Source: Oligoflexus sp. (lineage in GTDB: Bacteria; Bdellovibrionota_B; Oligoflexia; Oligoflexales; Oligoflexaceae). Taken from it: a stretch of DNA of 17,344 nucleotides. Position numbers and translations under genes: made by a program. The DNA lies in the NCBI GenBank assembly GCA_041736305.1, contig JBGSTX010000119.1:1-17344 (forward strand), given 5' to 3'. The notes under the pieces are model-generated. The model ran no database searches and was not told where the DNA came from. It worked only from the letters and a program-made list of their open reading frames with translations. Every line of letters begins with the position of its first letter. Positions within the stretch are counted from its first letter, which is position 1. Below are positions 12,603 to 17,343 of this stretch, piece after piece.

Positions 12603-12688
12603 GCGAAGGTGGTGGAATTGGTAGACACGCTAGTCTCAGAAGCTAGTGGGCGTAGCCTTTGGGGGTTCAAGTCCCCCCCTTCGCACCA
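12603..12688 (+). tRNA. tRNA-Leu (anticodon CAG)
   Basis: Acceptor stem GCGAAGG/CCTTCGC, discriminator A, encoded CCA, D-loop GAATTGGTAGAC, anticodon arm CTAGT-CTCAGAA-GCTAG, long variable arm, T-arm GGGGG-TTCAAGT-CCCCC. Confidence 0.96.
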
Positions 12689-14592: not shown

Positions 14593-15561
14593 TTACCCGC
14601 GAAGTTCTTTAATTTTCTTGGTCATAGCTGGTACGACTTTGAACAAGTCGCCTACGATCCCGTAATTGGCGATTTTGAATATGGGCGCTTCTGGATCAGT
14701 GTTGACGGCAACAATGACTTTCGAAGTTCTCATACCTGCCATGTGCTGAATTGATCCACTTATACCTGCAGCAAAGTAGAGATTCGGGTTAACGGTCTTG
14801 CCCGTCTGGCCTACCTGCATATCATGAGGTGCGAAACCGGCATCAACAGCAGCGCGGGAGGCGCCGACAGTTGCGCCAAGAGTATCCGCAAACTCATGAA
14901 GAATGGAGAAAGCATCGGCTGAGCCCAGAGCTCGGCCGCCGGAAACGATGACACTTGCCTCGGTAAGGTCGGCTTTCTCGCTCTTACCCTTTCTGATTTC
15001 TACTGTCTCCAGCTTGCCAGTAACAGGAGACACGTCGAGTTTCGTTAGCTGTGCATTGCCATCACCGGTGCTGTCGCCCTTGAACACATTAGGACGGAGG
15101 CTGGCGAAGTGAAGCTCGGCGTTTTGCAGCTGAAGCTGGGCGAAGCACTTGCCTGAATACATAGGCTTGGTGCCGGAAATCGTCCCATTTTCGTTTTTGA
15201 TATCGACCAGGTCCGTAGCCATTCCTGCATCAAAGCGAGCGGCGAGGCGGGGTAGGAGATCGCGGCCCATAGGGGTTGCCATGGCTAGAACTAGCTTAGG
15301 TGCGAAGGTCTTGATAGCCTGCTCGAGAGCGGCGGCGTAGTTGAGTACGTTGTAATGATGGAATGCGTTTCCACTCACCGAGTAAACGGTATCAGCTCCG
15401 TAACCTTTGATCTCTGATGTAAGGCCTTCGACGCTGCCGCCAACGACTAGTGCTGCCACGTCGCTGGCAGATCCAGCGAGCTTTCTGGCGGTCGCGAGGG
15501 CTTCATGAGAGCTTTTCTTCAGCTTATTTTCGCGCTGCTCGACAAAAACTAGAACTTTCAT
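14593..15561 (-). CDS. etfA: Electron transfer flavoprotein subunit alpha
   Basis: VIVSGGRALG, VGASRAAVDAG, QVGQTGKTV.P.LY.A.GISGSIQH.AGM, NTDPEAPIF; GGAGG RBS. Confidence 0.96.
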   Translation of the reverse strand: MKVLVFVEQRENKLKKSSHEALATARKLAGSASDVAALVVGGSVEGLTSEIKGYGADTVYSVSGNAFHHYNVLNYAAALEQAIKTFAPKLVLAMATPMGRDLLPRLAARFDAGMATDLVDIKNENGTISGTKPMYSGKCFAQLQLQNAELHFASLRPNVFKGDSTGDGNAQLTKLDVSPVTGKLETVEIRKGKSEKADLTEASVIVSGGRALGSADAFSILHEFADTLGATVGASRAAVDAGFAPHDMQVGQTGKTVNPNLYFAAGISGSIQHMAGMRTSKVIVAVNTDPEAPIFKIANYGIVGDLFKVVPAMTKKIKELRG

Positions 15562-15573
15562 AGAGAACCCTCC

Positions 15574-16365
15574 TTAGATCACTTTCGCTTCTTCGCGCAA
15601 GAGTTTGACAACCTTCGCCACCATTTCATCGACGCCTTCGCCCTTGAAAACCTGTCCGGCTTTTTTCTCAGGTGGGTACTGATAACTCTTTATCGCGACC
15701 TTAACTTTCCCTTGAAGCTGGGCTTGGTCGAGCCCGAGGTCGGAGATTTTCTTGACATCAAAAGGCTTTTTCTTCGCCTTCATAATGCCCGGAAGAGCCG
15801 CGTAGCGAGGGTTGTTCAAGGTCTTGTTCGCACCGATAACTGCCGGAAGTGGGAATTTATAAACTTCAACGTAGCCACCTTCTGCTTCGCGTTCGGCAGT
15901 GGCATTACCACCTTCAATGCTCAGCTTGTTGACTACGTTAACGTGAGCCCAACCGAGCAGCTCAGCGAGCATAGGCGCTATGTGCATGTTGTCGTCGTCA
16001 ATCGCTTGCTTACCGACTAAGACCAGGTCGGGGTTCTCAGCTTTGACGGCCGCTGCAAGAATTTTAGCGATAGTCAGAGAATCAGCATCAGCAAGGCCCT
16101 GATTGGAGATGAGTAGGCCGCGGTCACCACCCATCGCGAGACCTTTGATAATCAATTCACGCACACTGTCATCACCGTAGCTACCAATGACAACCTCGGC
16201 ACCGCCGCTGCGCTCTTTGATTTGAATCGCTTCTTCGATAGCGTATTCATCGTAAGGATTGATAATAAACTTAACGTCACCGCTCTCGATCGCAGAATTG
16301 TTGTTCGACAGCTGGATCTTGGTTTCTGTGTCGGGAGTCTTTTTTAGAAAAACCAAAATTTTCAT
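15574..16365 (-). CDS. etfB: Electron transfer flavoprotein subunit beta
   Basis: MKILV.LK..PDT, INPYDEYAIEEA, LAMG.D, GKQAIDDD, PRY..L.GIMKAKKK. Confidence 0.96.
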   Translation of the reverse strand: MKILVFLKKTPDTETKIQLSNNNSAIESGDVKFIINPYDEYAIEEAIQIKERSGGAEVVIGSYGDDSVRELIIKGLAMGGDRGLLISNQGLADADSLTIAKILAAAVKAENPDLVLVGKQAIDDDNMHIAPMLAELLGWAHVNVVNKLSIEGGNATAEREAEGGYVEVYKFPLPAVIGANKTLNNPRYAALPGIMKAKKKPFDVKKISDLGLDQAQLQGKVKVAIKSYQYPPEKKAGQVFKGEGVDEMVAKVVKLLREEAKVI

Positions 16366-16766
16366 AATATCTCCTCACAAGGATACCCACCAATTTATTG
16401 GTGGGAGGAATTAGAGTAAGCTATCTCCCAGGACGGAGATGATCTCTAAAAAGGGTGCCGGTCTTTTCCGGCTGTCAGTCTCGTGAGAGACAGTCCTGGT
16501 TTACACCAGGGTTCTCCGCTTGCGCGGGTAAAGGTCACCTTGCCGAAGTTATCGAGCAGTTTACTTGCAAGTAGCACTGGCCTAATCCCCTTACTCCTGT
16601 TTAACCACTTGCCTTAGAGCCCAGGACTGGTGAAGCATCCGGGGGTAACTATCTGACTCGCTCGTAACGTAGCTTGAGAGTTGCCCCTCTTGCTCGGGCG
16701 GGTCAACGTGAGACATGTTCAGAACCAATCTTCACATGCCTGCCTCTTTAAAGGCGGGTAGTTGAC
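16366..16766. mobile_element. Non-autonomous IS200/IS605-family element of the IscB/HEARO type (401 bp; no tnpA or iscB)
   Basis: Left end: target TTCAT (16361-65), guide tetranucleotide GATA (16382-85) at the foot of hairpin CCCACCAAT-TT-ATTGGTGGG (16386-16405). Right end: CATG (16735-38) at the foot of imperfect hairpin 16739-58, terminal TGAC (16763-66). Both guide/cleavage-site pairs fit the IS608-type pairing pattern. An omegaRNA scaffold lies inside. Confidence 0.85.
16512..16766 (-). ncRNA. HEARO / IscB omegaRNA scaffold (stand-alone); guide encoded by the flank starting at 16767
   Basis: Minus-strand hallmarks in the expected order: GTCAACTACCC...GTTGACC, CTACGTT, GGATGCTTCACCAGTCCTGGGCTCT, GGTTAAACAG, CAGTG, AACTTCGGCAAGGTGACCTTTACC, GNRA hairpin CCGC-GCAA-GCGG. 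Pseudoknot-compatible TCACC/GGTGA pairing. The 3' boundary is approximate. Confidence 0.85.
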
Positions 16767-16826
16767 TCTAAACCTCGGTCCGCTTAGTCCTCGTTAGTAA
16801 AATCTACCTGAACTATCAGGCTGCTG

Positions 16827-16855
16827 AGAGTAGCAGGTGCCTTCTTCCTTGGCAA
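16827..16855 (-). promoter_or_regulatory. Putative sigma70 promoter of etfBA, now reading into the omegaRNA
   Basis: Minus strand TTGCCA-17 nt-TACTCT with extended TG (TGCTACTCT). Confidence 0.6.
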
Positions 16856-16875
16856 CTGCTCTAAAACCCACTTCG

Positions 16876-17343
16876 CTATTGCCGAACATGCAACAAAGAC
16901 TGCATCGCAGCCCCAACTCCTGAGCCCAGCGTATGCCTGTAACCCAAGCGTTGCAGCCCCATTTCAAAGGCTGAAATACCACTGAGGAGATCGAGTTCAT
17001 CGACCATACCCAGGTGAGCAATCCGCATGATTTTGCCTTTGAGATGGTCTTGCCCTCCAGCGATTATGGCCCCGTAAGCGCTTCGGCAAACTTTGACGAG
17101 CGCCGAGCCATCGATCGCAGCAGGCAGGCTCACAGCAGTCAGCGCTTGCGAAGGGTGACTTTGCGCAAAAAGGCCCAAACCCATGGCTTCTGCGGCCGTC
17201 CGACAGGCCACAGCCAAGCGACGGTGATGGGCATCGCAGCCTTCTACGCCTACGGCAGCGAGCTGTCGCAGCGCACTGAGGAGGGCAAGTACCAGCGTAG
17301 TGGCTGGAGTCCAGGCCATTTCGCCTTTTTCTTGGCCTGCACG
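16876..17343 (-). CDS. Class V PLP-dependent aminotransferase (alanine/serine-glyoxylate aminotransferase-like), 5'-truncated
   Basis: Frame open to the window edge (RAGQEKGEMAWTPA...); C-terminal IAGGQDHLKGKIMRIAHLG and G.GV.AA motifs. Confidence 0.85.
   Translation of the reverse strand, partial: RAGQEKGEMAWTPATTLVLALLSALRQLAAVGVEGCDAHHRRLAVACRTAAEAMGLGLFAQSHPSQALTAVSLPAAIDGSALVKVCRSAYGAIIAGGQDHLKGKIMRIAHLGMVDELDLLSGISAFEMGLQRLGYRHTLGSGVGAAMQSLLHVRQ

Follow-up and report, generated by a model that had tools for sequence, protein, structure and literature searches.

A protein-less IscB-type element sits between the ribosome-binding site and start codon of etfB in Oligoflexus and bears a Shine-Dalgarno-like end

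We found that a mobile element without an open reading frame (ORF) separates the native ribosome-binding site of etfB (electron transfer flavoprotein beta subunit) from its start codon in Oligoflexus sp., and that the element end facing the gene carries a Shine-Dalgarno (SD)-like motif of its own. The DNA is a stretch of 17,344 nt (contig JBGSTX010000119.1 of assembly GCA_041736305.1), hereafter the window. The element is 401 bp long (16366-16766, minus strand), as delimited by empty sites in relatives and by 22 matches in its own assembly, many of them at contig ends. Its sequence identifies it as a non-autonomous, protein-less derivative of an IscB/omega-RNA transposon (ISC, IS200/IS605). 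The explanation we regard as the best overall, and as probably correct, is that such IscB-derived elements dock at start codons and that an SD-bearing end would keep the host gene translated.

The etfB ORF (15574-16365, minus strand) is intact and encodes 263 aa, of which residues 30-208 match Pfam PF01012 (ETF) at 1e-40. On the gene strand, the 401 bases of the element (16766 down to 16366) stand directly upstream of the ATG and are preceded by ...GGACCGAGGTTTAGA. Removing 16366-16766 in silico gives ...GGACCGAGGTTTAGA|ATGAAAATT, in which the leader reads GAGG-TTTAGA-ATG. Insertion therefore splits the native GAGG (16776-16773) from the etfB ATG, and the native spacing is lost. The filled allele instead reads ...CCTTGTGAGGAGATATT|ATGAAA on the minus strand and has GAGGAG at 16371-16376, 5 nt before the same ATG. 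The target pentamer TTCAT, which is also the candidate transposon-adjacent motif (TAM; 16361-16365, plus strand), reads ATGAA on the minus strand, that is, the etfB start codon and two further bases. All three sequence statements had been made in an earlier, sequence-only reading of the window (TTCAT as the reverse complement of the etfB opening, a well-spaced native SD regained on deletion, and a GAGGAG at the element end), and all three hold.

Empty alleles corroborate these limits. Among 13 same-genus genomes searched, 12 had a full-length etfB match (71-76% nucleotide identity) and all 12 have an empty site; the 13th, 72% complete, gave no match. In the 12 congeners nothing interrupts the leader before ATGAAAATT, and CGAGGT stands 6-7 nt upstream; among these, L026 has ...GGCCGAGGTTTAGA|ATGAAAATT, the empty allele that the sequence-only reading had predicted. 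In a 1749-nt contig about 97% alike, from a public run of another study (X2), only TT separates 16365 from 16769; this is an empty site with one substitution, and an X3 contig likewise passes from 16365 into leader-like letters. The X2 and X3 sequences are assembled contigs (four runs), hence not transcript evidence; six RNA runs contained 0.06-0.08 of the sampled words. Had GAGGAGATATT, the leader at the element end, been host sequence, empty orthologues should have kept it; neither it nor the element precedes the start in any of the 29 relatives' loci examined, and the X2 contig likewise lacks the GAGGAG leader. The difference between filled and empty alleles is 16366-16766, no more and no less, and the target site is not duplicated. 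Hence, judged from these alleles, the insertion is recent and unfixed, since it is polymorphic among strains that are about 97% alike.

The larger part of the element is guide-RNA scaffold, an identity that the sequence-only reading had not given. A HEARO RNA, the omega RNA scaffold of IscB, occupies 16528-16766 (minus strand) and starts at the right end with GTCAAC; it matches Rfam RF02033 over model positions 1-211 of 211 with 113.9 bits (gathering score 83, E 2.7e-23), one of 14 matches in the genome, 8 of which exceed the cut-off. Full-length copies in congeners measure 1.65 kb; against them, the 401 bp begin with about 255 nt of omega RNA, continue with a 64-nt filler and close with the terminal 82 nt of the complete element. 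By the ORF list, 16366-16527 holds no ORF, so the window copy has no adjacent IscB; since four congeners carry an IscB of 429-431 aa at the corresponding place in the same element family, the window copy is a deletion derivative. Both ends keep hairpins. The left-end subterminal hairpin CCCACCAATTTATTGGTGGG (16386-16405), the presumed TnpA binding site, is set back 20 nt from the end; the minimum-free-energy fold contains it, and copies differ on both sides of its stem (e.g. CCCATCAAT...ATTGATGGG). At the right end, the hairpin GCCT(T/C)-TAAA-GAGGC is found among the first HEARO stems, 10 nt inward.

The proteins that would mobilise this family are not evident in the assembly, which is 92.7% complete and in 392 contigs, many of them ending in these repeats. 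No IscB of the window's own family was found there: both PF14239 (RRXRR) matches belong to another subfamily, with another omega RNA and a WTAAA-type end. The Y1 transposase (PF01797) is represented by four matches, all of them partial (48-98 aa); three lie at contig ends and another contains 5 stops. The mini-elements of the window's family, here family A, may thus rely on proteins that are unassembled or absent. A third IscB subfamily in this genome (C254 3247-4721, C219, C59 and C194) includes two ORFs of full length, 394 and 377 aa. The omega RNA of this subfamily starts with GTCAATCACCCCACCC, unlike that of the window element, and its copies diverge after ...GGT(C/T)G|(A/T)TAAA, a target without an ATG. 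At the WTAAA-type ends of C254, C59 and C194 an SD-like motif is absent 5-9 nt from the end, a natural control that is small (3 ends) and no proof.

The left-end linker of the window element, TATCCTTGTGAGGAGATATT, is 20 nt long (16366-16385, minus strand) and holds the element-borne GAGGAG (16376-16371). With its 5-nt spacing and a duplex energy of -8.6 kcal/mol, this motif fits the SD criterion of 4-10 nt upstream; energies were calculated against the generic anti-SD ACCUCCUUU, which may not equal this genome's own 16S 3' end. In the minimum-free-energy fold the SD, 3' of the left-end hairpin, is largely unpaired (weakly paired) and the ATG is entirely unpaired.

The motif belongs to the family and not to the etfB copy. 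A left-end motif search of the own genome gave 13 matches, of which 10 are clear ends, each followed by ATGAA (10/10). The other three lack ATGA and were set aside, two as probable chance matches and one as a degenerate copy. Congeners added 9 ends in 14 loci, 8 of them followed by ATGAA and one by ATGAT. All 19 family-A ends read ...GGGTATCCTTG(T/A/C)(G/A)AG(G/A), then 6-7 variable A/T-rich bases, then |ATGA; the tetramer is GAGG in 17 of the 19 (AAGG in one copy) and GAGA in two. The ATGAT junction (L054/L093) opens an ORF of only 50 codons, with a LysR-like ORF starting 36 nt further on, and indicates that the fifth target base is not absolute. When the order was searched at the nucleotide level for this left end (95 genomes), it was found in the genus only, in 6 of 13 other genomes plus one weak match.

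Because the GAGG core is common to copies at unrelated loci, including the non-genic copies C371, C164 and C347, the SD-like motif predates the individual insertions. By this comparison it is element sequence that was not made at etfB and was sharpened there at most: the etfB copy has GAGGAG where its nearest copies have GAGGAA (-8.6 versus -5.6 to -6.2 kcal/mol). The proviso of the sequence-only reading, that the SD might have been selected after insertion, survives as local fine-tuning at most; an origin of the motif at etfB is contradicted by its presence across loci.

Other left ends of the phylum carry similar motifs. A second family in the own genome (C115, C273) differs in its hairpin, and its linker reads TTTCAATTGGAGA(G/A)A(G/A)CTTG|ATGAA. 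In G119, a complete genome from another class of the same phylum, the linkers are TCTCCAATTCGAGGT(G/A)TAGG (3 copies) and TATCGAGCTTGGAGGGATG. Further linkers before ATGAA in the phylum are GATTCATGGAGAGATTTG; TTTCTTGGAGATTTTGG, TTTCCAAGGGAGCAAGAACGG, TTCGAAAGGAAATTAGG and CACGAAAGGTTTTTAGG; and TTTTCAAAGGAGAAAGC. No left end was recognisable at two loci of G069 (L074, L075). Under a fixed rule (GGAG, GAGG or AAGGA at 4-10 nt from the ATG), 9 of the 10 distinct linker types are positive, for example TTTCAATTGGAGAAAACTTG, TCTCCAATTCGAGGTGTAGG and TTTCCAAGGGAGCAAGAACGG. The same rule is satisfied at 7.4% of the 12552 ATGAA sites in the own genome and at 44.4% of its 464 start-like ATGAA sites, which gives binomial probabilities of 6e-10 and 0.004, respectively; since the linker types are related, both figures are overstated. 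The families share a common plan, T(A/T/C)TC beside the hairpin and then the purine motif.

We found that the junctions fall at gene starts more often than expected. Taking the own genome and congeners together, 9 of the 19 family-A junctions open ORFs of at least 150 codons. Five of the ten in the own genome do so (the rest open 54, 13, 11, 9 and 8 codons), compared with a start-like share of 3.7% among its ATGAA sites (binomial 1.5e-5). In congeners the count is 4 of 9, plus four ORFs of 50-79 codons, and in G119 all four junctions lie at long ORFs (P 0.003). For a wider set, an alignment of six IscB proteins yielded 364 relatives, from which 80 loci were kept. Left ends were called by a heuristic (a hairpin, 14-24 nt, then ATGA, within 200 nt after iscB) at 53 of the 80 and kept at 48. 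The five calls dropped (L106, L117, L133, L136 and L142) had linkers without the family-typical foot; for L136 (+63, ORF 167) and L142 (+68, ORF 263) better left-end calls were left out of the 48. Some of the 48 junctions repeat junctions of the phylum and own-genome sets. Long ORFs follow 31 of the 48, two are cut by the locus end and 15 are shorter (P 2.5e-9 provided that the own-genome background transfers). Hence, insertions are enriched at start codons, as the sequence-only reading had expected of an ATGA-type target.

The genes downstream of the insertions are intact, and some of them are normally essential. At one junction ATG, residues 1-42 match positions 1-42 of 42 of the Pfam profile for the NrdR zinc ribbon, and at another, residues 13-133 match positions 1-121 of 121 for ribosomal protein S9; in these alignments the junction ATG is the true N-terminus. 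Other intact products assigned with Pfam are IleS, a TrxB-like reductase, a class IV aminotransferase, a histidine kinase, a trypsin-like protease, a short-chain dehydrogenase/reductase and EtfB itself. The IleS-, TrxB-, S9- and NrdR-like genes stand behind insertions of this family or of others in the phylum, and in one cultured Oligoflexus species a full-length copy precedes an endonuclease V-like gene. A variant was seen at C80, whose right-end flank, from position 200 upstream, is ...TTAAGGAGCAGACATGTCT|element. Spacing of the native SD there suits an upstream ATG, so insertion was apparently after codon 2 (ATG TCT | ATGAA...), and the element SD with the internal in-frame ATG would appear to yield a protein two residues shorter.

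These counts bear on whether the element is adapted at all. Elements might insert at any TTCAT, with in-gene insertions purged and those at starts surviving where a usable leader happens to follow; the SD-like end would then reflect drift or sharpening after insertion. Purging alone does raise the expected start share, from 3.7% to the 23.8% of non-disruptive ATGAA sites (461 starts and 1473 intergenic-like sites). Four of the ten family-A junctions in the own genome are non-genic (ORFs of 8-13 codons), the terminal 6-7 nt differ between copies (AGATATT, AAGTATT, CGGTTT, CAGTTTT), and GAGGAG at etfB against GAGGAA in the closest copies is compatible with local tuning. Start occupancy nevertheless exceeds 23.8% in each set: 6 of 12 for families A and B of the own genome (at least 100 codons, P 0.044), 4 of 4 in G119 and 31 of 48 in the wide set. 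The GAGG core shared by unrelated and non-genic loci predates the insertions, and 9 of 10 linker types carry the motif over a background of 7.4%. We consider this alternative distinctly unlikely.

In the wide set, a motif was scored as strong at a duplex energy of -5.5 kcal/mol or stronger, and 18 of the 48 junctions carry such an element-borne motif. Strong families include those of a Nitrospiraceae genome (CCTAAGGAGTTCTC, five scored copies, one of them AAGAAG), a Desulfuromonadales metagenome-assembled genome, and Nostocales, Scytonema and Nostoc. The motif is weak or absent at the other 30, where gene starts are occupied just as often; these include Thiomargarita/Parabeggiatoa-type elements (TTTCCTTGCCGATATTTTT), Chlamydiota, Ca. 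Uabimicrobium (TATCCTCGCCACAAATTG, five loci), Chloroflexota, Planctomycetota and others. Hence, the SD is not required for tolerance everywhere. One Nitrospiraceae copy (L148) has AAGAAG where its siblings have AAGGAG (-1.0 versus -7.7 kcal/mol) and still fronts a 278-codon ORF, which indicates that an individual copy can lose the motif. Start-codon docking thus looks clade-wide on these sequences, and the built-in ribosome site looks lineage-specific. The claim of the sequence-only reading that an SD is built into the element end stands for this lineage (19 family-A ends and 9 of 10 linker types of the phylum), and it does not extend to the other ATGA-targeting IscB families.

The same families address whether the purine motif is simply a structural or recognition part of the left end, needed by TnpA or acting through top-strand CTCC to regulate the element's genes, with its SD likeness incidental and downstream initiation SD-independent. 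Consistent with this, the whole stretch GGGTATCCTTGTGAGG is conserved in family A and not just GAGG, and the linkers share the plan of T(A/T/C)TC by the hairpin with the purine motif next. Genes behind SD-less elements in other phyla appear intact, so SD-independent initiation is evidently possible there, and an SD-like motif accompanies no more than 44.4% of this genome's start-like ATGAA sites. The evidently mobile multi-copy families without the motif argue the other way: Uabimicrobium (5 loci), Thiomargarita-type (6) and Chloroflexota (3) keep the hairpin and the T(A/T)TCC foot, so TnpA does not need the motif for transposition. Related Nitrospirae ends, ...GCCGCATAATCTC in Nitrospirae X3 and ...GCGCCTAAGGAGTTCTC in the Nitrospiraceae genome (5 scored copies), differ precisely in the presence of AAGGAG, which indicates that the motif can be gained within a lineage. 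Its frequency in the phylum's linker types (9 of 10) also exceeds that at native gene starts (44.4%). We therefore think a purely structural role unlikely.

For start-codon docking with an SD-bearing end, we propose the following course. Single-strand 'peel-and-paste' transposition would insert the element 3' of TTCAT. Because the other strand of TTCAT is ATGAA, the commonest five-base start among 2611 crude gene starts of this genome (14.7%), landings exactly between SD and ATG should be frequent. The omega RNA is always in the sense orientation at such start-codon landings, and the host promoter would transcribe the guide and omega RNA (in full-length copies iscB too) within the 5' untranslated region (5' UTR) of the host gene. 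The last 20 nt, from the hairpin to the cut site, carry GGAG/GAGG 4-9 nt before the ATG and would rebuild a ribosome-binding site; ribosomes would use this SD, and the host gene would stay translated. Both the start occupancy and the SD would then result from selection, which would favour expression of the omega RNA and act against losing the host gene. Read-through transcription, ribosomes using the element SD and a selective origin of the two patterns are inferred from sequence, and on the same grounds the insertion would be translationally silent.

A promoter-like pair lies upstream of the native etfB leader: TTGCCA (16855-16850), a 17-nt spacer and TACTCT (16832-16827), together 16827-16855 on the minus strand. 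The form TTGCCA/TTGCAA-N17-TA(C/A)TCT recurs in the empty sites of the 12 congeners, some 55 nt ahead of the ATG, and this conservation marks the pair as a putative etfB promoter, although a consensus scan of 16300-17000 found no promoter and did not flag it. If the pair is the promoter, the predicted transcript order is native leader (guide), omega RNA, filler, left end and etfB. An outward promoter was not found by eye in the last 90 nt of the element.

The displaced native leader (16767-16782, minus strand), contiguous with ATGAAA in empty alleles, is the guide-equivalent flank of the omega RNA, and these 16 nt followed by ATGAA are exactly the empty etfB allele. A cognate IscB with the window omega RNA would thus be directed to the etfB ribosome-binding site and start codon in element-free chromosomes. 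Since the guide corresponds to the translation initiation region of the host gene, IscB homing would cut element-free alleles at the ribosome-binding site. A guide RNA transcribed from the host promoter is likely a second benefit of the site, beyond what the sequence-only reading had proposed. By eye, 6 of 11 right-end flanks in the own genome have GGAG/GAGG 5-7 nt before the junction, which are displaced native sites. Right ends in the wide set were placed with an nhmmer profile, using only matches that start at profile position 1-2. Displaced native leaders are stronger where the element motif is strong (median -6.4 kcal/mol, n=14, versus -4.2 kcal/mol, n=21; one-sided Mann-Whitney 0.008 at the copy level), a trend and not proof, because copies are not independent.

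Several findings weigh against the proposed course. The start excess may reflect retention instead of targeting. The left-end heuristic presupposes an ATGA target and found nothing in 27 of the 80 loci. Beyond the 30 junctions with a weak motif or none, two family-A copies have GTGAGA, one of them fronting a 157-aa ORF, and the motif rule is not satisfied by the linker type of G043, which fronts S9. Given the common ancestry of the linker families, the motif is perhaps partly inherited and not repeatedly selected. A sigma-70-like promoter was not found inside the element by the consensus scan. Read-through could be stopped by a terminator-like hairpin that, with its T5 run, separates the omega RNA from the SD.

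This hairpin, GCCGG-AAAAGA-CCGGC followed by ACCCTTTTTA (16447-16472, minus strand), lies in the filler that replaces iscB and came from a consensus scan that gave 3 such hairpins in the region against 0.6 expected. The filler segment that bears it is absent from congener full-length copies, and similar sequence occurs in the mini-copies C273, C115, C59 and C194; the hairpin might define the 3' end of an orphan omega RNA. It also raises the prospect that the insertion is not neutral: the structured 401-nt leader, terminator-like hairpin included, might attenuate etfBA or change its regulation, and the allele would then be mildly deleterious or regulatory. The position of the hairpin on the etfB strand, the polymorphism of the insertion among strains about 97% alike and the lack of a promoter-like site within the element in the scan all fit such an allele. 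On the other side, etfB is intact and full length, strong polarity would be hard to tolerate before the IleS-, S9- and NrdR-like genes fronted by related elements, and the hairpin is short (5 GC pairs), with a T run that begins 4 nt past the stem. We rate a non-neutral insertion as very improbable. Directly downstream of etfB, a 322-aa ORF (14593-15561, minus strand) occupies the place expected for etfA. The window also holds a tRNA-Leu (anticodon CAG; 12603-12688, plus strand), found by ARAGORN and Rfam and unrelated to the insertion.

The element type, its RNA, its target and its dependence on outside transcription are already known. Meers et al. (bioRxiv 10.1101/2023.03.14.532601) give TTCAT as the TAM/target of the ISGst5 IscB of Geobacillus stearothermophilus, place the IscB guide beyond the right end of the transposon, on its 5' side, and state that the omega RNA needs transcription from outside the element, with an orientation bias toward the upstream gene. 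The window element resembles ISGst5/GstIscB in having TTCAT 5' of its left end, an omega RNA bounded by the right end, a putative need for outside transcription and an orientation that follows the host gene. It differs in that Meers et al. explain the bias by omega RNA transcription; their main text, supplements aside, describes neither a left-end SD nor docking at the start codons of host genes, and the one start codon mentioned is that of the transposon gene, from which distances are given. In Kapitonov et al. (2016, J Bacteriol, PMC4810608), ISC transposons target N|ATGA in cyanobacterial and proteobacterial families, and the window element shares their subterminal hairpins, lack of terminal inverted repeats and of target duplication, 5' end GTCA... 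and N|ATGA insertion; its copy differs in having no iscB (401 bp). The text does not link ATGA to translation starts and describes no SD in the 3' (left-end) terminus. Palindrome-associated transposable elements (PATEs), named there, are likewise short and non-coding and keep just the two ends; they are mobilised in trans by a Y1 transposase, as the window element may be. The window element differs by a guide-RNA scaffold kept in full (240 nt) and by a putative ribosome-binding site that faces outward. Compared with HEARO/OMEGA systems, the full-length RF02033 match from the right end and the guide position outside that end agree, and the lack of an adjacent IscB ORF in the window copy differs. 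In the literature searched (supplements and the 2009 HEARO and 2021 OMEGA papers aside), we did not find the target described as a start-codon address, a pile-up of insertions between ribosome-binding site and ATG, or a replacement SD in the left-end linker. The consulted parts of a 2026 OMEGA review and an Arc/IS605 preprint held nothing on start codons or host ribosome sites.

Two other mobile systems offer functional parallels. An IStron is a group I intron fused to IS605-type ends that leaves the RNA by splicing. Like it, the window element would have a damage-limiting device that lets an IS200/IS605-type element sit in the expression path of a gene; unlike it, the window element stays in the 5' UTR, nothing is removed, and a new translation initiation region would be supplied. 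The likeness to IStron splicing had been drawn in the sequence-only reading, and in effect the element would resemble an IStron while acting at initiation; the 30 of 48 junctions with a weak motif or none show that an SD is not general. The interpretation is in this sense partly supported, strongly at the sequence level for this lineage and not as a general rule across the clade. Integron attI sites supply a translation initiation region to cassettes that lack a promoter and an SD. There too a mobile-element platform gives a ribosome-binding site to a gene not its own, but the integron platform is fixed and the gene moves in, whereas the window element moves before a resident gene and would replace the site that it displaces.

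Taken jointly, these observations could mean that the ATGA TAM/target of this clade serves as a start-codon address, that the element is an obligate resident of 5' UTRs with the host gene as the last cistron of its operon, and that an outward SD evolved repeatedly in SD-dependent hosts. We hold this wider reading tentatively, with somewhat less than even confidence. If true, the element would pay with its left-end SD for taking over a host promoter to express its nuclease and guide RNA, and the arrangement would match, at translation, what IStrons achieve by splicing. Cas9 descends from IscB/omega-RNA transposons, whose coexistence with hosts is poorly understood. The finding would, if true, explain the tolerance of elements before ileS, rpsI, nrdR and etfB, their orientation bias and the persistence of protein-less guide-RNA relics. 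It also carries a warning for annotation, in that an 'intergenic' insert of 0.4-1.7 kb between promoter and start codon can belong to a working mRNA leader, and it offers a testable model of a transposon that would limit its damage at translation initiation.

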